Below, in pieces: positions 3,919 to 52,139 of a stretch of 64,000 bases of DNA. The number at the start of each line of letters is the position of its first letter. Position 1 is the first letter of the stretch. The position numbers and the translations under genes are program-made. The stretch is taken from positions 65,924 to 129,923 of the forward strand of contig JAAOMT010000222.1 in the NCBI GenBank assembly GCA_016748015.1, in the 5' to 3' direction. The stretch comes from Geosiphon pyriformis uo1 (lineage: Eukaryota > Fungi > Glomeromycota). The notes beneath the pieces are model-generated. The model worked only from the letters and a program-made list of their open reading frames with translations, was not told where the DNA came from and searched no databases.

Positions 3919-4298
3919 TGTTATGGTTTAAGAATTTAGCAAAAAGAATTATAAAAATAATACAAACTATTCAATCATAATATAGCACAGTAATAATCTT
4001 AGAAAGGTAATGATTAACATAGTAGCAACCACCATCTCGCGATAGTGGCAAGCACCAGTTCACAATAGCAGCCAACACCAACTGGTGATAGCAGCAAACA
4101 CCAGATTGAAATATCAAAAAAAAAAAAAAAGTATTACAATGTGTTTTCTCGTAGAACTACAAACATGTATATATACAGTAGTTTTAATATTGGGAAATAA
4201 TCAATCAAGTAATAAAAATCATAACTTATCAAGCAATAGATCCAATTTTATCCAACAAACTCCACTTTAAATCATACTTTCAAATTAAATATCCCAAA
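3919..4298 (+). repeat. 5' LTR of element C (cut short by an assembly gap)
   Basis: Matches 12529-12638 and 12884-12920. The 20-N gap at 4299-4318 hides the remainder and the PBS. Confidence 0.9.
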
Positions 4299-4382
4299 NN
4301 NNNNNNNNNNNNNNNNNNAAGAAAATCAAAAAAAGGAAATAATAATTAGCAATAATTCATTGCTAAAAAGGAAGAGACAAAA

Positions 4383-6050
4383 GTGGTGACAAAAACCCCT
4401 AATCTTACTGTTCTTGAATTCTGCCATGCTATTTACACACAAAATCAAAGTGATCTTGAATTACCAGAAGGGTGTTGTTCAGCAGAATCTGCCCTCACTT
4501 ATTATATCAATGCCAGAATAAATTATCATATAGGAAAGGAAGAAGAACCACACGACGCAAAACTTGGATTGTATAGAGAATTATCACAATACACTACAAA
4601 AGAAGTAGCAGTAATAGCCACAACTATTGTCAAAATCCATCGAGAAATTGAGCAATACGCCAACAAAAATTTTCCAATATCTACAGGAAACATTAGGGAA
4701 TGTGCCAACAAAACCAAAAAAAATTTAGAAACTAATCAGAAAAGTAACCAGCAAAAACTAGGAACACCAGCTCAAACACCAAAGAAAACTGTCACTCAAT
4801 CAATAAAGAAACAACGTATTTATTCACCAGAAGATAAATCATACCATTTTTCACCAGAAAATAAGATACAAATTCCATTAGGAGCTGCATCATCATCAAC
4901 ATCAACTCCACAAACACCAAGAACTCCTAGTTATACTGATAAATTTAAACAACGTAACTGGGGAGACATACCAATTACAGGAGGATATTCATCACTATTC
5001 CAAAACCCTCTTTTTCAGCCAAAATTTAGAACAGGGTTTGAAAACCGTGAAGAGGAGTCTGAATCGGAATCCGAAAAAGAAACCAGCGAAAAAACAATCA
5101 CAAGACCAGTCACTGGAACAAACAGCCAGTCCAGAAACCAAGAAACTCGTGATCAAGAGGAAAAACTGGATATAAGGGAAACCACCTTTAGGAACACTCA
5201 AGGAAATATCATCCCACCTCCTCTTAGACCAATAAACCCACCAGCAGAAAATGGCAATGAAATGACCACACCATACATTGCAAGACTAACAGATTTCTCA
5301 GGAGAGGAAAAAGAAACGGACGTGTACACATGGCTTAGAGAAGCACAAAAAGCCATCCAGGCAAATAACTGGAACGACCAAAGAGCAATTCAAACATTAC
5401 CTTTCTTCCTGAAAGGCACAGCTGACTTGTGGTATCAAAGCCTGGAAACAAAACCCACGAGCTTTGCCGAATTTAAAAATACACTCCTGGAGTATTTTAG
5501 CGACCCAAACACTGTAATCCAACTACAGAACGAATTCAATACTATCAAGCAAAATACTGGTGAAACTGTCACCCAATACCTTGCTCGATTCAATCGAATT
5601 TGCCATCAGATTGAAATGATTAAACAAGGATACTACACTGATTCTCAGGTTTTAAATCAGTTTATTAGAGGATTAAAAAGCAGCATTTTAGGAAAAGTAC
5701 ATCCTGCCCACCCTAATTCCTTACCAGAAGCCGTTACACTTACCAGAGCCCTTGAATCGGCTGAGAAAGAAGCTAACTATAGTCAAATGGTTAACATGGT
5801 AATGGAAGAAAATAAGACAGAAACATTAAAGAAAAGAGTAATGCGATTAGGAGAGGAACTCTCTAAGAAAATAGAAAGTTACCTCATCCCGGATCTGAGA
5901 AAAAATACATACCAACCACTCCAAAGATGCAGCCAGAAAGTCAGCAACAGTCGAAATAATCGCTCATCGTGCCAAGAATTCAGAACAGAAATACATGCCT
6001 GTCATTTTTGCAAACACGTAGGACATTTGATTAGTCAATGTCGAACGTGA
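4383..6050 (+). CDS. gag: Gag of element C (N-terminal extension, retrotransposon capsid, CCHC zinc knuckle)
   Basis: 555-aa ORF with WLREAQKAIQANNW, FLKGTADLWY, QFIRGL and CHFCKHVGHLISQC (CX2CX4HX4C). The terminal TGA is probably CGA>TGA because the same frame resumes at 6171. Confidence 0.9.
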   Translation: MVTKTPNLTVLEFCHAIYTQNQSDLELPEGCCSAESALTYYINARINYHIGKEEEPHDAKLGLYRELSQYTTKEVAVIATTIVKIHREIEQYANKNFPISTGNIRECANKTKKNLETNQKSNQQKLGTPAQTPKKTVTQSIKKQRIYSPEDKSYHFSPENKIQIPLGAASSSTSTPQTPRTPSYTDKFKQRNWGDIPITGGYSSLFQNPLFQPKFRTGFENREEESESESEKETSEKTITRPVTGTNSQSRNQETRDQEEKLDIRETTFRNTQGNIIPPPLRPINPPAENGNEMTTPYIARLTDFSGEEKETDVYTWLREAQKAIQANNWNDQRAIQTLPFFLKGTADLWYQSLETKPTSFAEFKNTLLEYFSDPNTVIQLQNEFNTIKQNTGETVTQYLARFNRICHQIEMIKQGYYTDSQVLNQFIRGLKSSILGKVHPAHPNSLPEAVTLTRALESAEKEANYSQMVNMVMEENKTETLKKRVMRLGEELSKKIESYLIPDLRKNTYQPLQRCSQKVSNSRNNRSSCQEFRTEIHACHFCKHVGHLISQCRT

Positions 6051-9000
6051 ATGATGTAGAAAGCATGCGAAAATAATTACTATGTGCCACCCCAAATGCC
6101 CAGAAACCAGTACATGCCAATACCACACCAATATCCCACCACGTATCATAATCATTACTAGCAACAGCCCATGATAGCCAACCCGAATTGGAGTCCCGAG
6201 GCCCAAAATCAGCCCATGTGGAACCAGAATGCGTTGGTCCAGAGGAATCCAAACCGCACTGGAACCAATCAGCAAACCAATCCAAACTACCAAAATTATC
6301 AACAAACTTACCTTAATATACCAGAAAACTTGATTATCAGAAACAATGACAGTAGAAACATAAACAGAACCAAGAATTCCTCCAAATTGAGCCAGACAAT
6401 ACCACCAGCAGTTGCCACCGAAGATAGCAGCCTCGCAGCTATTTTTCCTTTTGAATTAGAGGAAAACGAGGCTATGTTCAGTGGAGCAGCATTGGATGAA
6501 AANNNNNNNNNNNNNNNNNNNNGCGTTGGTCCAGAGGAATCCAAACCGCACTGGAACCAATCAGCAAACCAATCCAAACTACCAAAATTATCAACAAACT
6601 TACCTTAATATACCAGAAAACTTGATTATCAGAAACAATGACAGTAGAAACATAAACAGAACCAAGAATTCCTCCAAATTGAGCCAGACAATACCACCAG
6701 CAGTTGCCACCGAAGATAGCAGCCTCGCAGCTATTTTTCCTTTTGAATTAGAGGAAAACGAGGCTATGTTCAGTGGAGCAGCATTGGATGAAAAACGCCC
6801 AATCACTGCTATATATATGAAAGCCACTGTAAACAATACCCCAATCAAACTTATCTTAGACAGTGGATCCGCTGAAAGCATCATAATGCTTCAACTAGTA
6901 AACCAACTGGGTTTCAAAGTTGATCATGCCGCGACATCCCAAATCATAACAGCCAATGGAAGTACAAAGCTGCCTCATGGCGAAATCGACTTATTCCCTT
7001 TCAAAATTAACAGCATAGTAATACCTACAAAAGTATTAGTAATGGACGCTACATAATATCAAGTGTTAGTAGAGAATAACTGGCTAACAAAAGCCAATGC
7101 CACCCTAGACTGGACCACTCAAGAGCTTCTGATCAATTATAATGGCCACCAGGCCAAAATTCCAGCCACCTGTGGCCATTTCCAAAAACCCAGCGCCAAC
7201 CAAAGACCTATCTTTGAATTTGAGGAAAATTCAGCACTACCAGCCATCGAAACCTATTAGCTCTCTTGGGCTGATGACCAAAGAACAGGACTACCAGCCG
7301 TACCAATGTGGACCAGCAAAGAAAGATCCAAATAGAACCAGATAAGTTCATGAAGAAACCACCAGCGATGCAGACCAAAGCTAGAATGCTCAGTTTGCAA
7401 GAAGAAACTCTTGTCTATGACTGCATGCAGCGCACCAGATGAAGACCCAAGAAACCCCACCCACTACTATTGTAACCATTGTAACAAAGAAAAATACGGT
7501 TACCCAGAAAGACACGGAAAATGGGACGAGGAACTGTGCCTCACTTGTGGAGAACCATTACCAAGAAGATGCGACTAGAATGACATACCAGGCAGAGAAG
7601 GAACATGTGACGCAACTTGCCAATACACGATCCTCATCTGTAACTGGGTAAGAGAAGGAACGCCATTCGAAGCAGTGTTCAACAGAGCATTAAAAAGACT
7701 ACAGCACTACCCACACGACGAAGACAAGCTGTACAACACCGCACAAGCCAAAGTAAGAGGAGGAACCACTGAAGAAATACGATGTTGGAAAGAGTCAGCC
7801 GAAGTAGCCGACAAAGTCGCCAGCTACAATATGTTCGACCCAGTGGACGAATTCCAAGACTACTACCAACAACTATGCCCCACTCGACAAAAGCAAGAAC
7901 AATACCTTGCCCAAATCAACACTTACCTCTGCGAAAACTGTCTCATTCCATGCCAAAATCAGTGCTGTGAAGAGTGTCAAGACGAAAGAGACTTAGAAAG
8001 AAAAATGGAAATTGAGAATCAGCAATCTCAAAATCAATCAATAAATCAACAAGACTCATCTAACGGTCCCGAGTCAGAAAAATTTGTAGCCTATACTGAC
8101 CTAGAACAGGTAACCAACATCTGATACTTTGACAATGGGCACTTAGGAATAATACCCGAAAGAGCCCATTCAACCGACGCTGGATTTGATCTACGTTATC
8201 TGGAAGACCAATCCACAATGTTACCATCCAGGAGCATCACCAAAATCAACCTAAAAATAGTAGTTGAAATTCTGCCAGAAATAATGGTTCAAATGGCATC
8301 ACAATCAAGCCTCACGAAAAAAGGAATAAGCGTTCAAGGAGGAATAATTGACTCTGGATACACTGGAAATTTGATGGTTTTGCTACAGAACAATTCAGAA
8401 AAGCCTTATACCATTGAATCTAAAGAAAAAATTGCACAAGCAATTTTTCTACCATTGGTAAAAATTGGGAAATTCATGCCAGTGGAAAATCGTGAGGAAT
8501 TGTCACAAACAACGAGAGGAACTTTTGGTTTCGGATCGACAGGAAAAAGAATTGAAGCGAATTTCACTAAAACAATAGAGGAAAAAGGCAAAGTAATTAA
8601 AAATAAGCAGTCCATCACACTCCTACCATATGGAAAATCAGAAATAAGAATAAAAAGGACAATTAAAGAAAAAGACCTAATATTTGAGCCCTACCCAGAA
8701 ACTTGCCAACAGTTTCTTATAGGACTTACTAACCTTTTTATTCCAGCTGATAAAGCTCAATGGATAAAAATTTCTATCGCAAACACCACAGAAAACCCGT
8801 CTACATTCCGGAAGATACCATCATTGGATACCTTGGAATGGAGCTAGAAAACGCGTCAACATCACAAGAAATTCTAAATTTCTCAGAAATCGCCTTCTAC
8901 TGTGAACTCACTTCAATAAATTGGCAACAATCATTAGAATGCTATCAATTTATGCCAGAAGAATTGGCCAAATTAAACATTGGAACAATGGATCCTGACC

Positions 9001-10376
9001 AACAGCGACAATTAAAAGCATTAATTTTAAAATACTCTGATATATTTTCAAGAAATGGCGAATTTGGAAGAACCAACTTGGTTCAACACCAAATTCCCAC
9101 TAGAGACGCCAGACCTGAAAAACAACACACTTACCATGTTCCACTAATGGAGCATAATTTTATCAGAAAAGAAGTCCAAAGCATGTTGGAAAAAGGAATA
9201 ATACAACCATCAATGAGCCCATGGTTCTCACCAGTTGTTTTAGTAAGAAAAAAGAACGGAAAAATTAGATTTTGCATCAACTATCACAAACTAAACAGCA
9301 AAACAACCAAAGACTCATACCCAATATCATTAATTGACGAAATCTTTGACGTTTTTGGAGGAGCAAAATGGTTTTCTACACTGGACTTGACCAGTGGGTA
9401 TTGGCAAGTGGAAATGGACCCAAAAGACAGACATAAAACAGCATTCACAACACAAAATGGCAATTATGAGTTCAATGTAATGCCATTTGGATTAACAAAC
9501 GCTCCTGCAACATTCCAAAGACTAATGGACGTAATTTACTCTGGAATCCTGTGGCAATTCATTGTTGTCTACTTGGATGATACAAATGTTTTCTCGTCAA
9601 AATTCACGAATCATCTCCAATATTTACAACAAGTTTTTGAGAGATTGAGACACGCTGGACTTAAACTAAATCTAGAAAAATGTTTCTTTGGGAAAAATGA
9701 GCTAGCATTTTTAGGACACGTAGTTGGAAAAGATGGAATAAAACCAGATCCATCAAAAATAGACAAAGTGAAAAATTTTCCAGTACCTCGAAACGTTTCA
9801 GAAGTTAGAAGCTTTTTAAGACTCACATCTTACTACCGCTGCTTTGTAGAAAACTTTTCAAACATTGCCAAATCCTTTAATTACCTACTATCTAAAAATG
9901 TGAAGTTTGAATGGACTAAAGCACAACAAAAAGCTTTTGAGTACCTTAAACAAAAGCTCATTGAATTACCAATAATGATCTATTCAAATTTCAACAAGAA
10001 ATTCATTTTGGCCACAGATGCCTCTGGAACTGGACTTGGAGCCATTCTGTCACAAAAAGATAATAATGGAAGAGAACGTGTAATCACTTATGCCAGCAGA
10101 AGTCTCAGTATGGCAGAACAAAACTACGCAGCACATGAACTTGAATGCTTAGCAGTAGTCTGGAGTTGTGTTCACTTTGACACATATTTACAGTACCAAC
10201 TCTTTGAGATTATGACAGATCATAGAGGTCTGGTCTGGTTAAATAACAAGAAAGTGCTAAAAGGAAAATACGCCAGATGGTCACAAATGTTAGCACCATA
10301 CAATTATATTATCAAATACAAAGAAGATACCAAAAATGCTAATGTCGACTGTTTGTCAAGAATGAGACACACATAA
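6051..10376 (+). pseudogene. pol: pol portion of ORF1 of element C: aspartic protease, Cys-rich domain, dUTPase, RT, RNase H
   Basis: LILDSGS at ~6850. CxxC cluster at 7380-7990. dUTPase motifs DAGFDL, GGIIDSGYTG, KIAQAIF and RGTFGFGSTG at 8150-8550. RT motifs LDLTSGYWQ, MPFGLTNAPATFQ and YLDD (9570). RNase H ATDASG...ELECLA...TDH...NANVDCLSR. A few nonsense codons and one frameshift near 8795. Confidence 0.92.
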
Positions 10377-10405
10377 AAATTACCAACCCATCTGCCACAA
10401 CAACA

Positions 10406-11079
10406 ATGAACAACCACCTTTACAAAAACCTCAGCCAATACTTGGAAACACTACAAATAGACAAAAAAATGCCAGTAAAAGAGCTAATTAAGCTCCAAAA
10501 ATTAGCAAAACACTATTTCATCCAAAATCACATATTTTATTACCGGAATCGACAAAATCCAGATAATCCATTAAGAGTTATAACCACGGATGAAAAAGAA
10601 ACTATCTTATTTAACATGCACTCAGATATTCATTCAGGCCACTTTGGAAAAACAGCAACCATCCAACGTGCAACTAGCCATTACTATTGGCCAAAAATGA
10701 GTTCAGACATAATCCAATACATAAGAAATTGTGACCCATGCCAATGAAGAGAAGGAGCAAAAACAACGGAATTATTAAGACCAATAAAAGTTGGACAGCC
10801 ATTTGACAGAATCGGAATTGATTTAGTTGAACCCTTACCAATAACAACAAGAAACAACCATTATATTGCAGTAGTCATGGACTATCTCACCAAATGGCCA
10901 GAAGCTAGAGCTATTAAAACAGCTGATGCTATTTCCATAGCTCAATTTGTACATGAAGACTTAATTTGCCGACATGGATGTCCACAAGAATTGCTATCAG
11001 ATCAAGGCACACACTTTGTAAACAGCACCTTAAAAGAACTTAGCCAAAAATTTGGAATCAAGCGACCACTGTCATCACC
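10406..11079 (+). pseudogene. Integrase of element C (separate ORF; 3' part lost in the gap)
   Basis: HHCC zinc finger (HSDIHSGH...CDPCQ) and rve core IGIDLV, MDYLTKWPEA, LLSDQG. Own ATG at 10406, after the RNase H stop at 10374-10376. Confidence 0.9.
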
Positions 11080-11847
11080 NNNNNNNNNNNNNNNNNNNNN
11101 NNNNNNNNNNNNNNNNNNNNNNNNNNNNNNNNNNNNNNNNNNNNNNNNNNNNNNNNNNNNNNNNNNNNNNNNNNNNNNNNNNNNNNNNNNNNNNNNNNNN
11201 NNNNNNNNNNNNNNNNNNNNNNNNNNNNNNNNNNNNNNNNNNNNNNNNNNNNNNNNNNNNNNNNNNNNNNNNNNNNNNNNNNNNNNNNNNNNNNNNNNNN
11301 NNNNNNNNNNNNNNNNNNNNNNNNNNNNNNNNNNNNNNNNNNNNNNNNNNNNNNNNNNNNNNNNNNNNNNNNNNNNNNNNNNNNNNNNNNNNNNNNNNNN
11401 NNNNNNNNNNNNNNNNNNNNNNNNNNNNNNNNNNNNNNNNNNNNNNNNNNNNNNNNNNNNNNNNNNNNNNNNNNNNNNNNNNNNNNNNNNNNNNNNNNNN
11501 NNNNNNNNNNNNNNNNNNNNNNNNNNNNNNNNNNNNNNNNNNNNNNNNNNNNNNNNNNNNNNNNNNNNNNNNNNNNNNNNNNNNNNNNNNNNNNNNNNNN
11601 NNNNNNNNNNNNNNNNNNNNNNNNNNNNNNNNNNNNNNNNNNNNNNNNNNNNNNNNNNNNNNNNNNNNNNNNNNNNNNNNNNNNNNNNNNNNNNNNNNNN
11701 NNNNNNNNNNNNNNNNNNNNNNNNNNNNNNNNNNNNNNNNNNNNNNNNNNNNNNNNNNNNNNNNNNNNNNNNNNNNNNNNNNNNNNNNNNNNNNNNNNNN
11801 NNNNNNNNNNNNNNNNNNNNNNNNNNNNNNNNNTCAAAATTAAAACA

Positions 11848-12450
11848 ATGATACTTATTCCAGAAAACATCAACAATATAACTCAACAATTAGTTGAAAG
11901 CTTACAACAATTAAAATCCGATCTAGAAATCACAGTTAATAGCTCCAAAATAACATACATAAAAAGAACAATAGAAAATCCAAAAACAAGAAAAGAACAT
12001 AATTTTGAACCATATAATATTGCCAAATATAACAACAAATTTATTAGCAAAGTTATTGAAAAATTAGAGATAGCATTGGGCAATACATTAATAATAGAAG
12101 AAATAGAAATAAGTGAATTAACACCAGACATATTTAGCAATTTGAAAACGAAATTTCCAATTAATTACTGTTATTATCAACTAGGAAAGCACTTGAACAT
12201 ACAAACATTATACTCAAAAGACTTAACTAGAGTGTTTGACAAAACAACTATCCAATTATTAGAATCTTTCATTGGAAAAACCAATACTACATTCCATTCA
12301 AAAACAGTTTACAGAATTTTCAAAGCATTTGAAAACTGTCACAAATTATTGTTGGACTCAATCATGAACATAATAACAACTAACAGTATTGGACGACTTA
12401 CCAACTCGCAATTTCAAGAATTACAACAACAAATTAATAACCAGTATTGA
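11848..12450 (+). CDS. ORF3 of element C: conserved accessory protein of unknown function (200 aa, intact)
   Basis: Open ATG-to-stop ORF between integrase and PPT. Aligns by eye with ORF3 of B (28680-29399) and A1 (23575-24204). Confidence 0.8.
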   Translation: MILIPENINNITQQLVESLQQLKSDLEITVNSSKITYIKRTIENPKTRKEHNFEPYNIAKYNNKFISKVIEKLEIALGNTLIIEEIEISELTPDIFSNLKTKFPINYCYYQLGKHLNIQTLYSKDLTRVFDKTTIQLLESFIGKTNTTFHSKTVYRIFKAFENCHKLLLDSIMNIITTNSIGRLTNSQFQELQQQINNQY

Positions 12451-12496
12451 ACCACTATAGTAACTTAGAATTTAATGAAGAAATTAACTTCGATTT

Positions 12497-12528
12497 CGAT
12501 GGAGCTCAATCTTGAAAGGAGGGGATAA
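12497..12528 (+). promoter_or_regulatory. Pre-PPT motif and polypurine tract of element C
   Basis: CGATGGAGCTCAAT followed by GAAAGGAGGGGATAA directly before the TG of the 3' LTR. Confidence 0.85.
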
Positions 12529-13423
12529 TGTTATGGTTTAAGAATTTAGCAAAAAGAATCATAAAAATAATACAAACTATTCAATCATAATATAGCACAG
12601 TAATAATCTTAGAAAGGTAATGATTAACATAGTAGCAANNNNNNNNNNNNNNNNNNNNNNNNNNNNNNNNNNNNNNNNNNNNNNNNNNNNNNNNNNNNNN
12701 NNNNNNNNNNNNNNNNNNNNNNNNNNNNNNNNNNNNNNNNNNNNNNNNNNNNNNNNNNNNNNNNNNNNNNNNNNNNNNNNNNNNNNNNNNNNNNNNNNNN
12801 NNNNNNNNNNNNNNNNNNNNNNNNNNNNNNNNNNNNNNNNNNNNNNNNNNNNNNNNNNNNNNNNNNNNNNNNNNNNNNNNNNNCTCCACTTTAAATCATA
12901 CTTTCAAATTAAATATCCCAAAAAACCTTTAAAATCAAAAAGAAATGAAAAAGAATATTTAAAACTGAACTATCACAACTCAAAGTATTAAGAAACTTAC
13001 TTGTATTATTTATTGAATGAAACTATCATTCATCAACTGAATCCCTTGGAAGAATAATCCTTGATCAAGATTATTCACATTGTTACTAATTGATAAAAGC
13101 TTTATTGTAAGAGTAGAAGAGTGCTAAAGACCATTAATATTCTGTGTTTCTAGATTAGAGAAACATATCAGGCAATTGCAAGGATAGCCTCAGAGAAGAC
13201 CCCAAACAGTGGGTAGATTTCAGTTCAGCCTCTGAAAAGGAGTACATAAATACACACAACAATCAAAAATTGAAGAATAATTTACATCACAACAGTAAAA
13301 AGAAAGCCTTCAGTGTAACAGTGACATTATCACACAAATAGAATTGAGGAACTCACGAAAGACTGATTGCAATTAAAATGGAATATCAGCAATTAAATAT
13401 AACAAGAAAACCATCCTGTAACA
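12529..13423 (+). repeat. 3' LTR of element C (internal N gap)
   Basis: TGTTAT...GTAACA, preceded by the PPT and followed by TSD ATGG. Confidence 0.92.
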
Positions 13424-15516
13424 ATGGACTACTATTGTCAATTTCTAGCTTTGTTGTGTTATTTTTGGTCTTTGGATTCCATTTTGAGGTAAGTTTTGTG
13501 GTAATATTTGAATTTTTTAAGACTAATATAGTACTTGGAACTGTGGTTAATAAATAGGTTATGGCTGTGGCTAATAAATTATGGGTGTTGTTGGTTGATA
13601 AATTGGAGCTTGATATATTGGTGGTTAATAAATTGGCTGTTGCATTATTTGGATGTAATGAGGTGAGTATTGATCTTGATTTGGGTATTGATTTAGAGTT
13701 TGAAACCAACAATTGGAATTTAGATATTGATTTCCCAATCATTAATTATTTATTCTTTTTCGACATTCAAACTGTAAATGTTTTTGTTTACCACAATAGT
13801 GGCAAACATGTGTTTCTGATGATTACTGTTGATTGATCAACAATGCTGAACATAGTTGATTTTGGACATAATTAGAGTTTTCTTGATTATTATGTCATTG
13901 AAGAGATTGATAAATTGTCTAATAGTTGTTAACTAAGTATTTTTCTAATTTCTAATTGATTGATTCACTAAATTGCTTCAATTTGGAATTCAAGTCAGAT
14001 AATCTGTTTATTACTAGATTTATGGCTTAAACATGGTTGGCTTTAAGTTCAGCTGCTTCAAAATCTCTGGTGTTTGTAACAGTGGTTTGAAAGTCTGCTG
14101 GATGCAATGAACATACACATTGGAGGATGCTATTGTGTAGGCCTCTAATAAATTGGTTTAGGATTTGTGATGCTGTGAAATAATCAGCCTGTATGACCTG
14201 AATTTGGTGCAGATTTCTGTAGAAGCATCCCAAGTAAGTGGTAACTGCTTTATTTTCTCTTTGTTTGATGGTGGTAAAAGTGTTGGTTAATCAGTTGATG
14301 CTATTATTATTGCTAAAATATTGCAGAAATGCAAGTTTGAATGCATTAAAATCTTAAAGTTTGTTAACCAAGCTTTAATACTACAAGTTAACAGTATTCT
14401 GAAAAAAGTATGGGATGGCTTGCATGGCTCTGGCGTTATTCTATTTGTTGGCTGTGATGGCTTTTTTAACATTGTTTAGCCACACTTGGACATTATTTTT
14501 TTCATCTGTGAACTTTTTAAGCTTGGCTATTGAACCATAAGTCATTAAATCCAAGTTTAGTTGTTGTTATTGTTGTGGTAATAATTGTTGTAGTATAGCA
14601 GCTAGTGGTGGATTGATAATGATTACTGGAAGTAAGTGTTGTTGATTATTAATATTGAAGTTGGGATTAGTCTGATTTTGTGAGGTTTGAAAATTTGAAG
14701 TTTCAATTTTTGGGTTTTCTGTAATTGAATTTTGGTAATTAAATTCTTGATTCTTTTCTTCTTCTTTTTCTTCTTCTTCTTCTTCTTTTTCTTTTTCTTC
14801 TTCTTTTTCTTCTTCTTCTGATGTCATTATCTTCTAGGGACTCATGTTTCTGAAATCTGGTTGAGGTGGCAGTAATTGAAATTTTGATAGCATTGAAGAT
14901 TGTGATTTAAATTTTTCAAAGTAATTACCATAGGTTCTTAATAATTTTGCTTTCTTTTGTTTACTTTGAAATAGTAGTCATCCAAATGTTAATGTCACAT
15001 TTGATGTGGATGTGTCTGCTAATGTGATATTAATGGTACTTCTAATTGTATGATGATATAATAGATATAGTAAAGATTTAATTCTTTGCTTTTTTCACAT
15101 TGGTAATTGTATTTCTTTTGGAGTTGCTGTTGGTGTTTGTAATTTTTTTTTACTCTTATTTGCATAGGTAATAGGGAATTGTTGTTGAGTATATCTTTCA
15201 ATTTTTTGATTAATTTCCCTGATAATTGGTGCAAAACTATAATTTTGTGGTAAGCTAGTATGTTGGATTAATTCTGTATAGAAATTTTCTCTTGCTAATT
15301 CAATGTCAAGTGGTCTTCTTAAAAAATCTGTGATTTTTTTGTTAATGTAAAAATTGAAAACTGATTCTGCTGAATAATAGTTGTTGGTTAAGCCCAATTG
15401 TTGGCTGTACTGTTAAAATAAGGATTTAGCAAATCCTAAATGATTTGTTCCTATTATTTTTGATTCTACCACTTTTGAATGATTGTTGTTGATGCTGGTT
15501 TTCTGTAGGATTATAT

Positions 15517-15533
15517 CTCACAGAAAGCACAAA
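15517..15533 (-). promoter_or_regulatory. Primer-binding site of A2
   Basis: Minus strand reads T(T/G)GTGCTTTCTGTGAG just inside the LTR end. The A3 copy reads TGGTGCTTTCTGT (complement of a tRNA ...GCACCA 3' end). Confidence 0.75.
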
Positions 15534-23574: not shown

Positions 23575-24204
23575 TTAATATTGAGCTCCGTCAAAATCTA
23601 ACTCATGTAATTCTCCTTCTTGAAGTATTTTCTGGATTTTGTTTTCGAGAATTACTTGTGTTATTTGGGTCTGTAATTCTTCAAATTGAGCATTGGTGAT
23701 TTTTCCCAATTGATTACTAGTAACCAGATCCATTGCTCTGTTGAGCAATATTTCTGGTTTATTTTGAAATGCTGTGTGTATTCAGTATATGGCTTGGGCT
23801 TGTGTGGATAAGTTGTTCTTTCTCACAAAATATTCTAATTGTTGTAGTACTCCTTGGTCAAATAATTACTTTGTTTTATCCGTATATAGATTCTGGATAT
23901 TTACGTGTTGTCCCAAGTAAAAATAACAATAGTTTCGTGGAAATTGTTGTATCCATCAATTCCAAGTTTCTTTAGTCAACTCTTGATATAGTGACTCTTT
24001 TGTTGATTCTTTTATTACTAATTTTACTTTTGCCATGATTTTGTCCACAGTATTTTCAGTTTTCTTCTGTGTTCTGAGTTGAAATATCTTTCTAGTATCT
24101 TAATATTGAATGGTTTGTTGATTGATTGTAATCTCCATTTCCTGGTGTTGGATTAATTGAAAGAGTTGTTGTGCTAGTGAGTGAATGTTGTCTGTAATTT
24201 CCAT
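23575..24204 (-). pseudogene. ORF3 of A1 (nonsense mutations)
   Basis: Manual translation MEITDNIHSLAQQLFQLIQ...FPRNYCYFYLGQHVNIQNLY...QLGKITNAQFEELQTQI matches ORF3 of C (FPINYCYYQLGKHLNIQTLY...IGRLTNSQFQELQQQI). Confidence 0.8.
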
Positions 24205-27200
24205 TTTTTTGATATTTCCTGTTGCGTCTATCATGTTTTTATATATTCTTTTGATGGATCAATTTAACGTGTTGTTGTCGATAATAATGATTGGTTCCCG
24301 ATCTCGTGGAATTTCATCTGGTTGGACTAGTATTCTCTGTACTCCTAATTGTGGAATATTACTGGTAGATGGTAATGTAATGTTGTGATATGGTTTCAGT
24401 CAATCTCCATGTACTGCTTTGGTTAAAATTTTGTTATTCAATCTTAATTTGTAAGCTCCATTTCCTAGACTTTCTTCTATGTGAAATGGTTCATTCCATT
24501 TGGGGTCAAATTTTCCACTCCATTGTTTTTCTGCTTTGGTACAATGTAGTAATACTTTGTCTCTGATCTTGAATTCAACTGGTTTGTCTGGTAGTTGACT
24601 ATTGTGTCTTCCTTTCTGTGTTTCTTGTGATTTTTGGATATTATCAGCTGCTCTTCTTTGTTTGTTTTCCAATGTTTCCATTAAGTCATATGTTCTTCTC
24701 AGCAATGTTTCTTGAAAATTTTCCTCTGTTATTGGTTCAGCTGGATATGTATTAATTTCTCTCTCTACTGGTAACATTGCTATTCTCCCATATACTAATT
24801 CAAATGGTGTTGCTTGTGTAGTATCTTGTTTCATTGTCCAATAAGCAAATAGTACTAATGGTATAAACAAATCCTAATTGTTCTGGTTTTCTTGGCTGAG
24901 CTTGGCTATTGTTTTATACAATGTTCTGTTGAATCTTTCTACTAATCCGTTGGTTTGTGGATGGTATGGTGATAATAATAGTCTCTTGATTCCGAATCTT
25001 TGGCTCAATTCTGTTAATGTTCTGTTCACAAAATAAGTTCCTTGGTTTGATAATAATTCTTCTGGACATCCATGTCGACAAATCAAATCCTGATAAACAA
25101 ATTCGGCCACGGATTCTGCATCCACTTTTTGAATTGCTTTTGCCTCTGGCCATTTAGTGAAATAGTCCATAGCTATTGCTATGTATCTGTTTCCTCTGCT
25201 GGTGATTGTTAATGGTCTGACTAAATCAATTCCCATACAGTCAAATGGTTGTCCCACTTTGATTGGTCTTAATGGTTCACTGGATCTTGTTCCTCCTCTT
25301 TGCTGACAAGCATCACAATTTTGAACATATTAAATAATGTCTGGGTACATTGATGGCCAATAGTATCTTTTTTTAGTTCTTTCCATTGTTGCTTCTTTGT
25401 GAAAATGTTCTGCTGTTGGATTTGAGTGCATGTTGAATAATATTGTCTTTTTTTCTGGCTCCGTAATTACTCTGGTTGGTTGATTTGGATCTCTTCTATT
25501 TTTCTGATAAAGTATATTTTAGTGGGTGATAAAATATTTTGATTGTTGTTTGATACTCCTTCGTTCTGTATGAGATAAATTCTCCTTGAACTGTTGAGTA
25601 TTTAGATAATATTGCAATTGTTGATATTTTTGTATGTTCATCTTTTGTTGTATTTTTCCATTGGTATTGTTCTGGTTTTATTATATTTTTGGGTTGAAAT
25701 GTTTTTAGATTTGTCTTATTCATGATAAACCATCAGCATTTCCATTGTTTTTTCCCTTTTTGTAATGTATAGTATAATTGTATGATATGAGTGCCATTTT
25801 CCATTTTAACTGTCTTCCATCTCCAAATTCTTGTTTTTGGAGTGATGTTAATCTCTTGTGATCTGTGTATACTTCAAACTTCTGGCTCAAGTATTCTTTC
25901 CATTTCATGATAGCCCAGTATATTGCTAAGTGTTCTTGTTTTGGTGTTCTATAGTTCTTTTCAGCTGGCGTTAAACCTCTGCTGGCATATACTACTGGAT
26001 GTTCTCTGCCATCCGGTCCTCTCTGAGATAATACTGCTCCCAATGCTTGGCCAAATGCATCGGTGGTGATGATGAATGGTTTGCTGTAATCTGAATAGAT
26101 CAGTACTGGAGCTTAGATAAGCTTTTTCCTCAGAATATCAAAAGCTTCTTGTTGACTTTTTGTTCATTCATATTTCGAATTTTTGTTTTGCAGTTGATTG
26201 AGTGGCTGCGCTATCTTGGAAAAGTTCTTGATAAAATGATAATAGTAGCTGGCAAATCCCAAGAATGATTTCAGTTCTGTTATATTGGTCAGCACTGGAA
26301 AGTTCTTTACTATTTCTATTTTCTCTGGATCTGTTTTAATGCCATCTTTGCTGACTATGTGTCCCAAGAATTTGAGTTCCGTCTTGCCAAAGAAGCATTT
26401 TGTTGTATTCAACTTCAGTCCTGCTCTTCTCAGTCTTTCGAACACTTGTTGAAGATAATAAAGATGATCATCAAACGTCTTTGAGAATACATTGGTGTCG
26501 TCCAAGTATACAACTACTGATTTTCACAATAAGCCAGTATAAACGATTTCCATTAGCTGTTGGAAAGTTGCTGGGGCATTGGTTAAGCCAAATGGCATCA
26601 CTTCAAATTCAAAATTTTCTTCTCTAGTAGTAAATGCCATCTTTTCTTTGTCAGCTGAATTCATGGCTACTTGCTAGTAACTACTGTCCAAATCTAATGT
26701 GGAGAACCATTTGTTCCCACCGAAAGCATCAAATAATTCCTGTATTTGTGGAGTTAGATAACTGTCTCCATGAGTTATACCATTGAGTTTCCTGTAGTCT
26801 ACACAAAACCAGATTTTTCCATTTTTCTTATGAACAAGTACCACTGGTGACAATCATGGGCTCATTAATGGTTGAATTAGCTCGTTGTCAAGCATTCTGT
26901 TTATCTCTTGATGAATAATCTCATGGCTGGCTGGCAGCACTCTGTATGCTCTTTGTTTGATTGGCATTGCATCTCCAGTCTTGATCTGATGTTGGATGAT
27001 GTCAGTTTGGCCAAACTCATTTTTACTGGCAAAGATGTTGTTGAAATTGTTGAGTAACATCTTGAGCTGTATACATTGGAATGGATCTAAGTTTCCTATG
27101 TTCATTTGTTCCAATTGTTCTGGTTGGAGCAAATAACATTCGTCTCATCCATAGATTGTCTGTGATGTGATGTCAACATATCCACAAAGTTGTGGAAAGT

Positions 27201-27731
27201 CTGGAATGGAGTTTGGTGGTTGGTTTTCTATTTCTGTGATTAGATATCTGATGGTGGTTCCTTCTGGTATGTTGATGATATTACCAGTGTTGTTGTAGAT
27301 GGGAATTTTTATGTTGCTATAGCTTTTGGCTAATATGTGGAGATTAATCAACCCAATCTCTCCTGATTCACAAAGGGTTGCTTCTGCTTCAAAAATCTGT
27401 TCTTGCTCCTTTTTTTTCTTTTCTATTGCTAACATGTACTGGCTGTATGGTGGAATGGAAATAGCTTGACCAGTTGAGATAATTTCTCCTTGGCCAACAA
27501 TTTCTTCCTCTGCCATGTTAACTGGTACATCTATTCTACCTGTGGATCCGAATCCCTGTATTTCTCTTGCCATGATTTCTAATTCCTCCCTCTTTCCCAC
27601 TGATACTAACTGAGCTATTCTAACCAGAGGCAGGAATATTGCCTGTGCTATCTTTTCATTGGGCTCTATTACATAGGCCTTTTCTGAGTCATTTTGTAGC
27701 ATAGTGATGATATTTTCTACATATCCCGCAT

Positions 27732-28711
27732 TGTTACTGGAGGTTTTTGGTCTCTTTTCTGTAATGTTGTTGATACTTATTTGCTGTGAATTCACGTTTT
27801 CTGGATGTGGTTGAACCTCCAGTAACTGAATTTATCTTCAAATTATCTCCTATAATTTGAACTTGCTGGGCTTATGAGTAAAATGGCCAATTCCATGCCA
27901 GTTGCTTTATGTAGTTACGTTGTAGTAAACATTAACTCTTTTCCAGGAATTGCTTGTCTGGAAGCTCACTAAAAATGTGTAGTTACTTTGCTGTGAAAGT
28001 CAACTCTTCTACAGGAATCTCGTCTGTAGGCTACCCTAATGATTGTAATAAGAAAAAAAAGAAAAATAAAAGAAGTGTAAAAGAAATAGGATCTTATCAA
28101 GGAAAACATTTTCTATCCAGGCCTGGAGTCACTAACAGTTTACTGAAATTGGTAGCTAATCAATTTCGAAATGTTAGTTGGGTTTTGGGGATTTTCCAAG
28201 TACAATAATTAAAGAATTTGGTTTTTTGAATTATTTGATATTTATTTCTTTTTGTGTGTATAGGAACGGTTTTAAGAGATAAATCTAAAGTGAGATACAT
28301 TTTCTTGAAGAGAGAAGCTCTTCTTTTATACAACTTGTTGTAACACTATTCTATGAACTTGAACTTTGCTATTTTCTAAAATTTTGCTGAACTAAAGATA
28401 CATTTTGGCAAACTATAAGTTATTTCGGTGAACTATTAGATATTTCGGTGAACTATCAATTATTTTGGCAAATTTCTACAAATTTTGGCAAACTTTTTGA
28501 ATGTTACATAGTTCGGGGTATTGCATGATTAATTATTGCAATTAGGTTACATTTGTGTTGTGTAAAATTTGGGTTATTAATTAAATGATAATTTCGGACA
28601 TTTTTGCTAATGTAATAAGTGATCATTTGAAATGATAATATATGCTAATTAATAATAGGAATTATAAGATAATTTCATGCTAAATAATATCTCTAATTTC
28701 GTCTGGTAACA
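27732..28711 (-). repeat. 3' LTR of element B
   Basis: Reverse complement of 621-1600, TG...CA termini, adjacent PPT. Confidence 0.95.
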
Positions 28712-29399
28712 TAACCTTCTCCTCAAGACTGAGCTCCGTCGAAGTCCAAATACTGTCTGTTATTTCCAGATAATAATCCAAAATTATTGAAGAAATTTGG
28801 TTTGAAAATTGTTGAAATTTCAGTTCTGTGAGCTTTCCAATGTATTGAATCTTCAAAGGTTGAAAAATTGGGTTTTGTAGTACGTTTTTACAGGTGTGGA
28901 ATAGGTCATAAAGTTTAAGAGCGGCTCTAAGCCTGTAGTGACTGTTTGTTAATTCAGCTGTTGTCTTGAATTCGTTGTGAAGTTGTTTTTGAATAGCTTC
29001 TTTTGTGAGGTTTGCTGTTGTAAGTTCCAGTTTCCATTTGTAGAGTGTTTTTCCAATGTGAAAATATCTATAAATTGGAGGATATTCAGTGTTTTCCTCA
29101 TTGAGACACAGTTGAAGTTTTTGTTGAATTGTAGCATTTGGTGGAATACTAATCGGAGTGAGCATTAGGTTTTCTCTTAAAGCAAGCTTTAAAAGTTCTG
29201 GGAGGTGAATTCCAGTATAATTTCTTGTATTCTTTTTATATGGGTGATATTTTCATGAATTTGGGGCTAAATTTGTAACTACTTCTGTTTGGGTATAATT
29301 AATGTGGTTTCCAGTAACAGTAATAGATAATTCAGATATTGTTTTTAAAGCTAACATTAGTTTTTGGGATAATTGTTGAATGTTTTGAGGAATAGTCAT
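28680..29399 (-). pseudogene. ORF3 of element B (239 codons, one internal TGA)
   Basis: ATG at 29399 (MTIPQNIQQLSQKLMLALKTISELSITVTGNHINY) is in frame with ORF 28680-29165. Homologous to ORF3 of C. Confidence 0.8.
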
Positions 29400-30950: not shown

Positions 30951-33900
30951 CTAATCTTGCCTCATCCTTGAGAGACAATCAACGTTGGTGTGGAGTTTTC
31001 CTAGTTTGTGGTGTATGATGTATTGGTAATTAGCTAAAAATCCTGTACATCAGGTTTGTTTTGCATTCAGCTGGGTGTTTTTGTTTTGAAGCCATTTAAG
31101 TCCAATATTATCAGTGATAATATTGAATTCTTTGGGTCTGAGGTAAAGGTTGAAGTGATATAGGGCCCAGATTACTGCTGTGGTTTCTAATTCTGTTGCG
31201 GGGTAGTTCTTTTTGGCTGGCTTTAATGTTCTACTAGCATAAGCAATTACTTGCTCATTTCCATTGTCATCTAACTGTGATAGAATGGCACCAAAGGCAG
31301 TATAAGAAGCGTCAGTTGCTAACCAGAATCGGTTGCTGAAGTCTGGGTAGGCAAGGATTGGGGCTGTTGTGAGTTTTTCTTTAAGTATTTCGAAGGCATT
31401 TTGGTGTTCTTTTGTTCATTTGTATTCGACATTTTTTGTAGTGAGCTGGTTGAGGGGTTTTGCAATTTCTGAGAATCTTTTGATGAATTTTCGGTAATAA
31501 GATGCTAATCCAATAAATCCTCTTAATTCTGTGGTATTTTGTGGAGTCTTGAAGTTTTTGACAGTATTGATTTTTCTGGGGTCTGGTTTAATTCCATCTT
31601 TGCTAACAATGTGACCAAGAAAAGCTAAACTTGTTTTTCCAAAGTAGCATTTTTTAATGTTCAGTTTCAATCCTGCTTTCCGTAATTATTGAAAAACTTC
31701 TCGCAGGTGAATTAAATGTAGCTCGAAAGACGGTGAATAAACATCAGTGTCATCAAGATAAACTACTACTGATTTCCAAAGGAGGCTTTTGTAAACAACA
31801 TCCATGAGTCTTTAGAATATTGCTGGTGCATTGCATAATCTGAAAGGCATTACATTGAACTCGTAATTTCCTCCTTGAGTGGTGAATGCTGTTTTGGGGC
31901 AGTCTTTGGGATCCATAGCAACTTGCCAGTATTCACTCTCTAAATCTAATGTTGAAAAGTATTTGGACTTTCCAAGAGCATCCAACATGTTATCAATTCG
32001 GGAAAGAGGGTAGGCATCCCCAATGGTGACACTGTTGAGTTGTTGGTAATCAACACAAAATCGTATCTTTCCATTTTTCTTTTTAACTAGAACCACAGGT
32101 GAGGTCCATGGGCTCATTGATGGTTGAATAAGCCCATTGTTAAGCATCCATTGTACTTCTTTTCAGATAAATTGGTGACTTTCTGGAGCAACTCGGTAGG
32201 CTTGTTGTTGCCTGAGTTTGGCATCTCCTGTATAGATTTGGTATTGAACCAAATTAGTTCTTCCTAAGTCATTGTTGTTTTCGGCGAAGATATCAGCAAA
32301 TTCTGCAATTAGTTCTTTGAGCTGGATTTGTTGTTGTAGTTCAAGTTGTCCCATGTTGATTCAAGATAGTTTTTCCATAACAACATGGTAGTTTTCAGAG
32401 CTAGAGTTTGGGTTGATTTTTGGTAGTGAATGTCCAATAATTTCAGGAAAATTGGGAACTGTTTGGGGTAATTCTTGTTGAAATATTTTACTGTGAATAA
32501 CTCCAATTTCTAAATTATTTAATAAAATTATGGGGTAATTATTGGGGTTGTAAAAAGTAACTCGGATTTTCTTTGTTCCTTCTGGAATATAAATGTTTGG
32601 GATCAAAATATTATGTTCCAAGCAGACTTGTTCATTGGACTCAAAAATTTGTTGTGTGGTTGTTGGCTTTGTGCAAGTGTAAATTTCTGGATGTTCTCCA
32701 AAGGGTAAGATAGTAATTGGTTGTGAAAGTCTGAGAATCTGGTGGGATTCGTTCTGTGTGTTAAGAGCTATATTAACTGGAACTGTGAATTGTCCAGTTG
32801 AACCAAAACCTTGGGTTCCTCTATTGCTTTTTCCTAATTGTTCTCTTTGATTGACTAGTTGCAAACCCAAAATGTTGATTAAGGGTAGGTAAATAGCTTG
32901 GGCAATTTTTTCAGCATGTTCGATCTTGAATAGTTTGTCAGTCTCATTTTGAAGCATCACTGTTATGTCTCCAGTATATCCAGCATCAATTATTCCTCCT
33001 CTAACATTGATTCCTTTGCTTGCCAGAGAGGACCGAAAGGCGATTTAAACCATTGCTCTTGGTGGGATTTCGAATGCAATTTTGAGGTTGATTTTTGTGA
33101 GAGATTTGGGTTTGAGAACAAGAGTATCTTTGCCTGGATATCTTAGGTCATATCCAACATCAATTTCGTGTGCTTTTTCAGGTTTTATTCCTTGTCCGTT
33201 GTTGTTGAAGTATTTAAGTTGTAAAGCAGACTGATTTTCGATAAGGTAGATGGGTGTTGTTTCAATTTCTTCCGTTTCTTCAGGTTCTCCAAATTCAATT
33301 TCATTCTCATCATTTTCGCTGAACAAGGGGATACTAAGAGCATAGCATTTGGGACACCATTGTTCATTGCAAGGCATAATGCATTCTTCACATAGCCTAA
33401 TGTTCATTTGCTCTAATTGTTGAATTTGAGCTTCTTGGGTTGGGTAGGTGTGACTTGTAATTTGGTGATAGACTTCTACTTCATCTTCGTAATCGAATCC
33501 AGCTAATTCTATAGTGTATTCAATGTATTCTGCTTCCTTCATTTGACAAACATCTTCTTTGGTAGCTCCATTAATTAATGCCATTGCTAAGTCGAAAATC
33601 ATCTCGGCATCATGAGGGTAGTAATAAAGTTTGTTGAAAGCACTGTTGTATGCTGCATTAAAGGGTGTTCCTCTTTTTACTTTTTTTGAAATTGATAAGG
33701 CATATTGGCAGGTCTGATCACAGACGTCTCCTCTCATTGCTACATCAATCCAATTGCATTCTTCTGGTAGCATATCTCCACAAGTCAAACAAGCAGTGTT
33801 GTCCCATTTTCCGCTCCTTTTTATTAGGTGGCTCCATCACTCTCTGTGACAGGCCTTGCAATAATAACAAGTATAATTCTCATATTCTTTTTCAGGTAAA

Positions 33901-36572
33901 ATGCAGGCTCCCATTGACGATAGTTTTTTGTGGCAGTCCTTACATTTAAGGGGAATATAGGGGCATTGTTTTCTTGGTTCGGGTTTGGAGTAAGGTATAT
34001 TCCATCCAGAGGTTTCGGGTTTAGTGTGTATGGTAAAATGTTCTTGTTCTGTTTCATTGGCCCAGTTGGACGTTGATCCAAGAGCCATGAATGTTTCGAT
34101 TATTGGTTTTTCTTCTTCTGGTTCAAATTCAAAAGCTGGGGCTTTTTTAGAGCATTTGTTGAATGTACCACAAATTGCAGGTACTCGGGTGTGTTGTCCT
34201 TGGTAGGAGATTGTTAACTCTTGTGTTTCCCAATTCAGATTAGCATTGGCTTTTTGAAGCCAATCATTTCCGACGAAAACTTGGTACTGGGGTGCGTCCA
34301 TTACAAGAACTTTGACTGAAATGGTGATTCCATCAAGAGTGAATGGAAAATTGTTAATTTCTTCTACTGGTGTCTTTTTCATGTCATCGGCAGTGATGAT
34401 TACTGTTTGAGCTGGTCAGTCGACATTTCTTTTCAACTGTTGCATTAACTGGTAGGTAATAATGCTTCTGGCGGATCCACTGTCTAGGATTAAGTGAATT
34501 GGCTTTCTTTCTACTTCAGCTTCTGTGTACATTGCAGTGATGGCTTTTTGCTCATTAGCTGCTGCATTGCTAAGCAAGAATGGTGATTCATTTGCTTCAA
34601 ATTCAAAAGGAAAGATATCAGAGAGATTGGCGTTTTCAGCAATTCGGGCTGGTAGAATAGTGGTGTGGTTATGAGAAGAGTTTCGTTGTTGTTGTGCTGC
34701 AGCTCTACCTTCCGAGGGTGCAGTATGGTGAAAATCCTGTTCTTCCAGCATTGTTAAATAACTGGGTTGAGTGTAGTAATGGTTGGATCTTGGTTGAATG
34801 GTATTTCGGGAGACCAATTGGTTGTTCGAACTGATTCTACTGTTGTTTACTTGGTATCAATTTTGTGGTGTGAATTGATTTTGTGTAATCAGTCTTTGAG
34901 CAGGTACTTGATAATGTTGTGTGGGTGGTTGTTGGTATTGCTGTTGGATTGGTTGTAGGGCGGGCTGATAATAGTTATTTTGGTACTGGGATCTTGGTGG
35001 ATAATAAGCTGGTGGTAATGGTTGATAATAAGATTGCTGTGATGAAGAGTAACGTTGATTACCCCTGTTTTGTTGGTCTCGCTGTAGCTTTCTGCAATCT
35101 CTTTTCCAGTGGCCAGAGGTTCTACAGTAATGGCAATTCTGGGGCTGGTTATTTGAAAGTGGTGCAAAGTTATTTTGATTTTGTCTTTGGGGTGGTTGAT
35201 ATCTTTGGGGTTGTTGTTGTTGTTGGTTGGTAAAATAGTTTTCGACCTTCTTTGTGAGTTGGTCAATTTTTTCCTCAGCTGCTGAGCTGGTTTCTTCAAT
35301 TGCCAAATTTACAAGTTTTGTACAATTGGCTTCTTCTATGGCCATTTTGTATCTTTTTGCATGCTGTATTGCAGAGTTTAAATCTTCTGGCACATGTGGG
35401 CGAACCTTTTTAATTAGTTTATTTTTTAGACCAGCAATAAATTGATCCAAGATTTGAGCATCAGAATAATAATCATTTGTCTCGAGTTGGCGAATCCATC
35501 TGAGAAGTTTGTTGAATTTCCCAATATAAGTCATAATGGATTCGGAGGGTTCTTGTTTGATATTTCGAAAATGATTGCGAAGAGTAATAGAGGTATTATT
35601 GTCAGTGAACTGTTCAAGGAAGGCTGCTTTGAAAGCATTCCAATCATTGAATGGGGCGGCAAGGTTTTCAAACCATTCTTCTGCTGTTCCTTTGAGAAAG
35701 TAGGGAATTGTTCTTAACATTCTGACAGCGTTCCATCTATTTGCATCTCCAGCTTTAGTAACTTGATCGAGCCATTCTTGGAGACTGGTCTCAATATCTT
35801 CTCCATTGAATTCAGGGATTTTTGCGATGTATGTTGTCATTTCATTTTCTTCGTTTTCACTGTCTATTGATTCTTCTTCGGTTATTTCAGAGTTGTTTTC
35901 TTTGTTTGCTGGTGTCTCAAAGTGTTCACTTTGATTTTCAGCTAGAAAATCAAGGAGATTGGAACTAGTTTGAAGGGGTTTTTGTTGTCTGGTAGGACTT
36001 CTGAGTGATGTAAAATCTTCTGGTCTTGCAAATCAATTCAAGGGTGAATTAGGTGTTTGTGCTTGTGCAAGTAAGGCTGGAAAAGGTGTGATAGTAAGTG
36101 GAAGTTTTGAACTGGTTTCTTGTTCAGGTGTTTGTAAATGTTTAGCAGTTGTTTTCAGTAGTGTTGGAGTATTTGGGATGGTTCTTGAATATTGCTTTAA
36201 TTTGTTTTTGCCTTTGTTGCTTGTTTCTGTTTCCGATTCAAAATCAATAGTGTATTGAGACTGCACTGAATATGTTTCTTTACAGTATTTGATAATGTTA
36301 TAATTAAGTTCATGAAAGTAAGTGGCAAGTGTTTCACTATTAAGGTCTTCAGTTCCCAACTGTGAATAGTGTGCTAAATTATTGTAAAGGTTGCTTTTAA
36401 CTTCTGAGATATTGTAATTTCCAAAAAGATAATTGTTGATGCGGTTTTCAATATATTGGTATACTGATTTCTTGACAACTTCAATTCCATCTGGAATGTT
36501 GAATCTTTGCTTGCAGTGGGTGTAAATTGATTGGTAATACTCTAGAGTTGTTGCGTCTGGTGTGGTCGCCAC
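30951..36572 (-). pseudogene. gag-pol: ORF1 of element B: extension, Gag (CCHC), protease, Cys-rich domain, dUTPase, RT, RNase H
   Basis: CHYCRTSGHWKRDC, LILDSGS, CKDC/CKAC/CLTC/CEEC, VGYDLRYP..GGIIDAGYTG..KIAQAIY..RGTQGFGSTG, LDLESEYWQ, YLDD, ATDAS, NVDCLSRMRQD*. Confidence 0.92.
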
Positions 36573-36609
36573 TTTGAATTTGTTTTTGCNNNNNNNNNNN
36601 NNNNNNNNN

Positions 36610-51200: not shown

Positions 51201-52139
51201 GGTTAACCTCAGTTGTTGACTGTACTGTTAAAATAAGAATTTAGCAAATCCTAAATGGTTTGTTCCTATTATTTCTGATTCTGCCACTTTTGGATAATTG
51301 TTGTTAGTGCTGGTTTTCTGTAGAATTATATTTTACAGAAAGCACCAAATGTTACAGATAATTATTTGGGGTTTTAAATTAAATAACAAACTCATAACTT
51401 GGTGCTTTAATCAATATAATGGTGTTGGTTTCTGAAGATTTGGGTAATCTGAAGGTTTTGGGTTGTCTAAAGATTTTGGTGTTAAATTCTTTGTATAATG
51501 GACAGAAATTTAATGCTTGTCTTCTCAGTAGCTTTCTGGAATTGCAATTTCATCAAATTTTTTTCTCAGCATGATGGCCAGTAATCTGGCAGAGATGCTC
51601 TTTTGGTAAGCTATTCTTAAATTCTCAATATATACTTTTTCTTTGGGGTCTTTTATCAGGCTATCCTTGTGGTCAATAATTCAGTGCTTTTTCTCTTTAA
51701 TTAATTAGCACAACAAAAGAAAATAACAAAAATAAAATAAAAGAAAATAAAAGAAATTAAGCCAAGGTGATAAATGTTAGTATTCTGTCAATAGCTGTGA
51801 TTAAGAGTTATTGTTCTAGTGTAGTTAAGTATCAATTACTATCAACATGAAGTGTTGATAGTGAAGAGTAAATTTGAAATATAGAATAGTTATTTATTGG
51901 TATTTAAGATGTGGAAGGCTGCTTAGATTAAATCTAAACTGAGAAGTTTGTTTTTTCTTCTTTTAATTTTACTACTATATATACATAATTAATGTTCTAC
52001 AAGATTGCTCACATTTCTGAGCAATGTGTTATGATTTTTTAAGTAATGCTTACATTGTTGAGCAATGTATTCACATGCTAATTACTACTCTTCTATTGGT
52101 CTCCTATTTTTTATATCTGTTTTTTTTTTATGAGTAATA
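42257..52139 (-). mobile_element. Full-length decayed Gypsy copy A3 with non-matching LTRs (3' alpha 42257-43105, 5' beta 51350-52139)
   Basis: PBS TGGTGCTTTCTGT at 51333-51347, gag 49600-51287, protease ~48970, dUTPase 47030-47430, RT 45800-46500, integrase 43810-45172, ORF3 relic 43120-43750. Confidence 0.88.

Follow-up and report, generated by a model that had tools for sequence, protein, structure and literature searches.

A conserved GUG codon as the putative start of an extended Gag in Ty3/gypsy elements of Geosiphon pyriformis

The gag genes of Ty3/gypsy retrotransposons in Geosiphon pyriformis carry a conserved GUG codon that would start an N-terminally extended Gag. Comparison among copies strongly supports this feature as real and lineage-wide, and it would be a known translation strategy in a variant form, attached to an unclassified Gag domain. 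Ribosomes would start the long Gag at the GUG, just 3′ of the primer-binding site (PBS), and those scanning past it would start a capsid-first short Gag at an AUG 730–930 bases further on. A weak start at the GUG would keep the ratio of long to short Gag low, and the extra domain could be a minor particle component or an accessory factor. We regard a GUG start, by whatever route, as quite probable, and we lean towards leaky scanning as the way in which the GUG and the capsid AUG would provide the two forms. The initial annotation had already proposed two Gags by leaky scanning. Several hundred further copies now lend this idea strong comparative backing, while it is still a deduction from sequence.

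The elements and their GTG codon

The window, which is the whole stretch of 64 kb that was analysed, is AT-rich and consists of nested Ty3/gypsy LTR elements with five assembly gaps. Element C (3919–13423, + strand) comprises an LTR, gag, PR, dUTPase, RT-RH, IN, an extra ORF and a second LTR, and is bordered by a 4-bp target duplication. Its LTRs, at 3919 and 12529–13423, are identical at 148 of 149 compared bases, and the element is thus young. Element B, on the − strand, has the same layout, and its LTRs show 97.4% identity across 662 nt. The gag copies A2 and A3 (family A) are older. Pfam matches in element C were PF19259, PF03732, PF13650, PF00078 and PF17917, and PF17921 was found downstream in B. 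The assignment to Ty3/gypsy is based on LTRs flanking gag-pol, the target-site duplication, a Ty3-type capsid and the PR-RT-RH-IN order.

Several other features of the window were recorded. Domains of dUTPase (PF00692) occur at 8125–8844 (+), 32364–33044 (−) and 27148–27831 (−), and lie between protease and RT in C and B. Several families have an extra ORF between integrase and the 3′ LTR, in the position of env (11836–12450, +), with related stretches at about 23700–24400 (−), 40400–41060 (+), 43200–43900 (−), 57800–58500 (+) and 28683–29252 (−). Most of these ORFs share a C-terminal motif, and the two that were tested had no Pfam match above threshold. An exact 272-bp duplication (6231–6502 and 6523–6794) on either side of a 20-N gap is most likely an assembly overlap. 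An Rfam scan returned one chance match and no ribozymes, and no tRNA genes were detected.

Within the window, tblastn found only four gag copies, those of C, B, A2 and A3. Three homology searches gave further relatives (71, at least 120 of 188, and 114 proteins), and all those listed were hypothetical proteins of G. pyriformis. When 1.84 billion proteins were searched with a profile, 216 matched, of which 150 were listed; the ten looked up among these, mostly divergent ones, all came from G. pyriformis. The one narrow pattern run against viral and metagenome contigs brought up no relatives. The other copies are gene models, predicted ab initio from decayed elements, together with short contigs, and not DNA loci, and the upstream parts of such models are often invented exons. 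In these models (P0002–P0417), hundreds of annotated hypothetical proteins are element fragments behind a first exon that is unrelated or comes from an LTR. The inconsistency of these first exons would likely be explained by a predictor forced to look for an AUG start that is not in use in the elements. Two proteins, P0140 and P0179, belong to a fourth gag family, more distant, whose N-terminal domain is related, the start being hidden in these models.

The initial annotation placed the opening of gag at a GTG in strong context in all four copies, and direct reading of the positions agreed. The sequence AAA-GTG-G, with A at −3 and G at +4, was present with its GTG at 4383–4385 (+) in C, the proposed start of the long Gag, at 36570–36572 (−) in B, at 15470–15472 (−) in A2 and at 51285–51287 (−) in A3. 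GTG is a minority Val codon, with 7 of 56 in C and 3 of 38 in B. An in-frame stop had also been noted just 5′ of the GTG of C; it lies at 4353–4355 (+), nine codons upstream, and the ORF runs from 4356 to 6050. A2 has an in-frame TGA inside the PBS (15518–15520, −), 16 codons 5′ of its GTG, and neither A2 nor A3 contains an ATG from the PBS to the GTG, as had been claimed. In C, a gap of 20 N (4299–4318) hides about 500 nt of the 5′ LTR together with the PBS and, in B, another of 20 N (36590–36609) hides more than 300 nt of the 5′ LTR end together with the PBS, as judged from the 3′ LTRs. Since these gaps cover the leader ends of B and C, the window alone would allow an upstream start in these two elements.

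Across the families, the codon is conserved as Val. Among 296 motif matches in 416 proteins, the residue at the site was Val in 263, Met in 22, Leu in 10 and Ile in 1, the motif allowing no residue but these four there and leaving proteins without it uncounted. Alignment-based counts agreed, with Val in 51 of 58 models of family C, 67 of 74 of family B and 84 of 102 of family A. The share of Met (7%) was within the rate of G>A change at non-CpG codons with G first (median 0.10). The variants are Met and not Ile, which indicates that the codon underlying Val is GTG. Several Met or Leu rows look like splice junctions made by the predictor, to judge from their unrelated upstream residues. In a subfamily with Asn before Val, where the G can sit in a CpG, Met was found in three of seven rows, and of three models that span the site in one divergent subfamily of A, two start with Met (P0395, P0370). 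In the family A contigs of run X1 (n = 2948), which may be the window's own sample, the GTG and its flanks (51278–51291) had no variants at or above 4%, against 34 variant rows elsewhere in the same 161 bases. Also, decay in these elements runs G>A and C>T, so that ATG>GTG would go against it, as had been argued. Together, the Val counts, the background-level share of Met and the invariant contigs indicate that GTG is ancestral and not a decayed ATG.

Families A, B and C share 19–30% identity over the first 130 residues, and the Val is aligned at position 1 in all of them. This points to one inherited feature and not to three independent ones, and the GTG of the three families is best read as a single inherited trait. 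The residue at −1 was Lys, Asn or Thr, whose codons all begin with A, in 106 of 107 Val rows of A, 59 of 59 of C and 92 of 97 of B; variation among these three leaves the A at −3 in place.

The extension between the GTG and the capsid

The extension covers 293 codons in C (4383–5261, +), without Met or stop (0, 12 and 24 stops in the three frames), and 244 codons in B (35841–36572, −), without Met and with one TGA in this copy. The first in-frame Met, at 5262 in C and 35840 in B, is at the capsid start, exactly where the initial annotation had seen it. Over the extension, the other frames contain 8–25 stops, compared with a stop-free gag frame. The description of a Met-free extension held for C and B but not for A2, which has four in-frame Met. 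A3 has ATG at three of these four sites, but is frameshifted. In relatives, the Met columns of A2 are mostly Thr, or Val, Ser, Asn or Ala, which fits decay of ACG; the extension of B has no Met columns and that of C only Thr/Met columns of the ACG-decay type. Several full-length family A extensions (290–310 residues) are without Met. The first family-wide AUG follows 244–310 codons, and no family-wide Met occurs in frame between the GTG and the capsid start. The chance of zero Met in 847 codons was about 2e-5 at the capsid-region rate and 4e-3 at half that rate, the rate being estimated from Met columns and the families being not fully independent.

Out of frame, five ATGs were counted in C and three in B, the same numbers as in the initial annotation, which had attributed all of them to CpG decay. 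This is consistent with C, where all five are at decay sites (at least four with T>C variants among the 40 of 109 variant rows listed, and one with an Arg/His/Cys polymorphism). It did not extend fully to B, where the ATG at 36490 may be ancestral, the next codon showing background G>A only. A depletion of out-of-frame ATG was not observed: raw counts were not below the synonymous-codon expectation (5 against 5.4 in C, 3 against 2.9 in B), in a test run on decayed copies that was not significant. In B, such sites were kept more in the capsid region than in the extension, among the few examined (11 and 6).

The ATG at the capsid start is conserved too. It is located at 5262–5264 (+) in C, as the proposed start of the short Gag, with PF19259 and PF03732 after it (Met in 42 and Ile in 8 of 50 models), at 35838–35840 (−) in B (Met 45, Ile 4 of 49) and at 14543–14545 (−) in A2 (Met 47, Ile 11 of 58 family A models). 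The Ile is accounted for by a G>A change. In family A, this AUG is mostly preceded by a Pro codon, with C at −3, and has thus a weaker context.

A domain homologous in A, B and C was predicted at residues 10–100 or so (4410–4682, +, in C). AlphaFold2, run on a 12-sequence alignment, gave four helices at residues 10–96 with a pLDDT of about 90, in accordance with the initial annotation, which had expected the first 110 or so residues to be helical. The rest of the extension is a low-complexity linker rich in Ser, Thr, Pro, Gln and Glu, basic and then acidic. No signal or transmembrane segment was found in four extensions (maximum 19-residue Kyte-Doolittle value 0.50–0.95), and the N-X-S/T motifs, three per extension, are uninformative without a membrane anchor. 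Fold searches with the domain in PDB and BFVD yielded nothing at E ≤ 0.001, and no MA fold was among the fold matches listed. Comparison with VIA reached at best a Z of 7.2 (rmsd 3.9, 84 aligned), within the generic helical range. A sequence profile of the domain retrieved nothing below E 0.04 in PDB and no usable match in the Atlas, and Pfam gave only a sub-threshold PAZ_2. The differences between A2 and A3 by codon position were dominated by decay.

Upstream sequence, leader and alternative readings

Protein conservation begins abruptly at the Val. In family A (70 rows), column entropy was 1.2–2.0 bits at positions −6 to −2 and 0.6 at −1, and below 0.5 bits at 13 of the first 20 positions from the Val. 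A DNA motif upstream of the GTG occurs in three frames in A (77, 9 and 6 rows), so that the argument from frame shifts rests on 15 of 92 rows in this family, and in two frames in B (21 and 6). The predicted pairing of this motif with the PBS would account for its conservation without coding. Two other possibilities were discarded: that the conserved motif 5′ of the GTG of A is coding, as it is predicted to pair with the PBS and shifts frame, and that the stop in the PBS of A is a decayed CGA, as such a variant was absent at or above 4%. Contig variants indicate that this in-frame stop is conserved within the family A PBS.

The predicted hairpin of family A, formed by the PBS and the motif downstream of it, spans 51305–51348 (−) and includes the stop at 51333–51335; z was −1.7 and −2.1 for the folds of 146-nt regions. 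Its counterpart in A2 lies near 15490–15532 (−). Variants at 51340 (46%) and 51316 (47%) had similar shares and would be compensatory in the hairpin. Downstream of the GTG, no stimulatory hairpin at about 14 nt was found in C (z +1.3) or B (z +0.8), and the folds of A2 and A3 were weak, all in decayed copies.

In each of the three families a TATA-like box, presumably functional, precedes the LTR end by about 560–670 nt, and the likely leader takes up about 600 nt of LTR, which the initial annotation had not mentioned. In family A, a uORF of seven codons (51825–51848, −) has the sole leader ATG common to seven of seven LTRs, the remaining leader ATGs of these LTRs alternating with ACG or ACA. 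This pattern would suit scanning with leaky passage or reinitiation. A leader of such length, carrying one or more short uORFs in A, also weighs against the reading with a GUG start and leaky scanning. The LTRs of A, B and C also have in common a GG(A/G)TAGCCT motif (about 13181–13191, +; 51645–51670, −; 28020–28040, −). It is capable of forming a tetraloop hairpin and is a possible packaging or processing signal; the hairpin had no Rfam match. Finally, contigs of runs X2 and X3 over 4408–5287 revealed a high-depth derivative of family C which skips 4693–4844 and whose loose end ahead of 4408 carries sequence resembling an LTR end and a PBS. It appears to be without the GTG and to resemble a non-autonomous element.

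Four other readings have to be set against a long Gag from the GUG and a short Gag from the capsid AUG. The GUG could start the only Gag of the full-length RNA, the capsid Met being a residue for protease cleavage or for structure or the start on an internal transcript, similar to p22 of Ty1. Every fact that supports the GUG applies here, the truncated Gag of Ty1 is described as coming from internally initiated RNA (PMC5408680), and the capsid AUG of A has a weak context; nevertheless we find this unlikely, because 730–930 nt without a family-wide in-frame AUG would be left unexplained and because non-AUG starts, which need A or G at −3 and G at +4, are reported to leak nearly always (PMC3542737; for start rules, see also PMC5666671). 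A different reading seems improbable to us, namely that splicing over the PBS joins an AUG of the LTR leader to the extension, with the Val as an internal residue. The uORF ATG of family A, followed by GT and joined to a CAG acceptor 26–29 nt before the GTG, is its best candidate first exon and stands as the chief competitor of a GUG start; in a variant, a junction A|TG would be made at AAAG|TG. This ATG is conserved in all seven LTRs, 77 of 92 A rows share one frame with the acceptor, gene predictors use such acceptors, and the gaps hide the leader ends of B and C. Yet 15 of 92 A rows and the 21:6 split in B break the single frame, the residues from acceptor to Val are poorly conserved, and the homologous LTR motif of C has no ATG in both copies read. 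Moreover, no AG precedes the TG in the N|V and T|V subfamilies, the predicted first exons are mutually inconsistent, and a fixed GTG with A at −3 would be unexplained.

The extension might also be translated from another nearby near-cognate codon or by internal entry, with the GTG as a conserved Val codon. The leader is indeed long and structured at the PBS, and A has in-frame ATA and ATC codons from the stop to the GTG. Since some subfamilies have these codons in another frame and no further codon is common to A, B and C, we consider such a route very unlikely. It is hardly credible that the GTG arose by decay of an ATG in dead copies, or that the extension is untranslated. The copies are decayed and two models of one divergent subfamily begin with Met, but the direction of decay and the dominance of Val in three families speak against it, as do the stop-free frame, the fold predicted with high pLDDT and the youth of C; the family A contig variants and the Val motif matches largely refute it. 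Initiation at the GUG, with leaky scanning to the capsid AUG, is thus the reading that we retain.

If this is true, a single codon would set the ratio of two Gags in elements of a genome for which 41.2% LTR sequence has been reported and LTR expansion described (PMC11952901), a paper in whose main text the word "gag" is absent, and an unclassified Gag domain would be exposed. In a broader reading, which we hold to be about evenly balanced, the GUG would be obligatory and lineage-wide, kept down to about 25% protein identity, and would ration a domain-bearing long Gag against a capsid-only Gag. With the dUTPase and the third ORF, it would form a retrovirus-like accessory layer independent of glyco-Gag, and the extra domain, as part of the same reading, would be a lineage-specific helical domain in matrix position.

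Comparison with known systems

Non-AUG extended Gag has been documented in gammaretroviruses (PMC3042739) and in the domesticated PEG10 (PMC2800197). No prior report in a mobile fungal LTR retrotransposon was found in titles and the beginnings of abstracts, in a search that covered little of the subscription literature. The glyco-Gag of MLV (gPr80gag) likewise uses a non-AUG start, upstream and in frame, to make a Gag lengthened at its N-terminus from the same unspliced RNA (PMC3042739, PMC3542737), and the elements described here also have an in-frame upstream non-AUG codon in strong context, putatively used as a start. The analogy with glyco-Gag, drawn in the initial annotation, applies to the translation logic only. 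Glyco-Gag starts at CUG, adds 88 residues with a signal peptide, and is ER-targeted and glycosylated (PMC3042739), whereas here the codon is GUG, the extension of 244–310 residues is about three times longer and without a signal, transmembrane or other hydrophobic segment, and the short form would begin at the capsid. Because the extension has no membrane anchor, the product would not be a glyco-Gag.

PEG10 also has two starts, an upstream CUG and a downstream AUG, both reported as experimentally shown (PMC2800197). It is a domesticated mammalian host gene with a 34-residue extension, in contrast to the mobile fungal elements studied here and their predicted folded domain. With Ty3/gypsy elements (Metaviridae), the present elements share LTRs, a PBS, a Ty3-type capsid, a zinc knuckle and the PR-RT-RH-IN order; they differ by the 5′ end of the gag ORF, which is without AUG, by the unclassified N-terminal domain, by the dUTPase and by the extra ORF after integrase. 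Ty1 belongs to Ty1/copia. It too makes a long and a short Gag, p22, from one gene, but p22 is described as arising from an internally initiated transcript (PMC5408680) and uses AUG codons. Leaky-scanned extended isoforms are also described for the C′ protein of human parainfluenza virus 1, from GUG, and for the coat protein of furoviruses, from CUG (PMC3542737). These are RNA viruses whose proteins are unrelated to Gag, and the resemblance to the elements of G. pyriformis is in the extended isoform that leaky scanning would produce.
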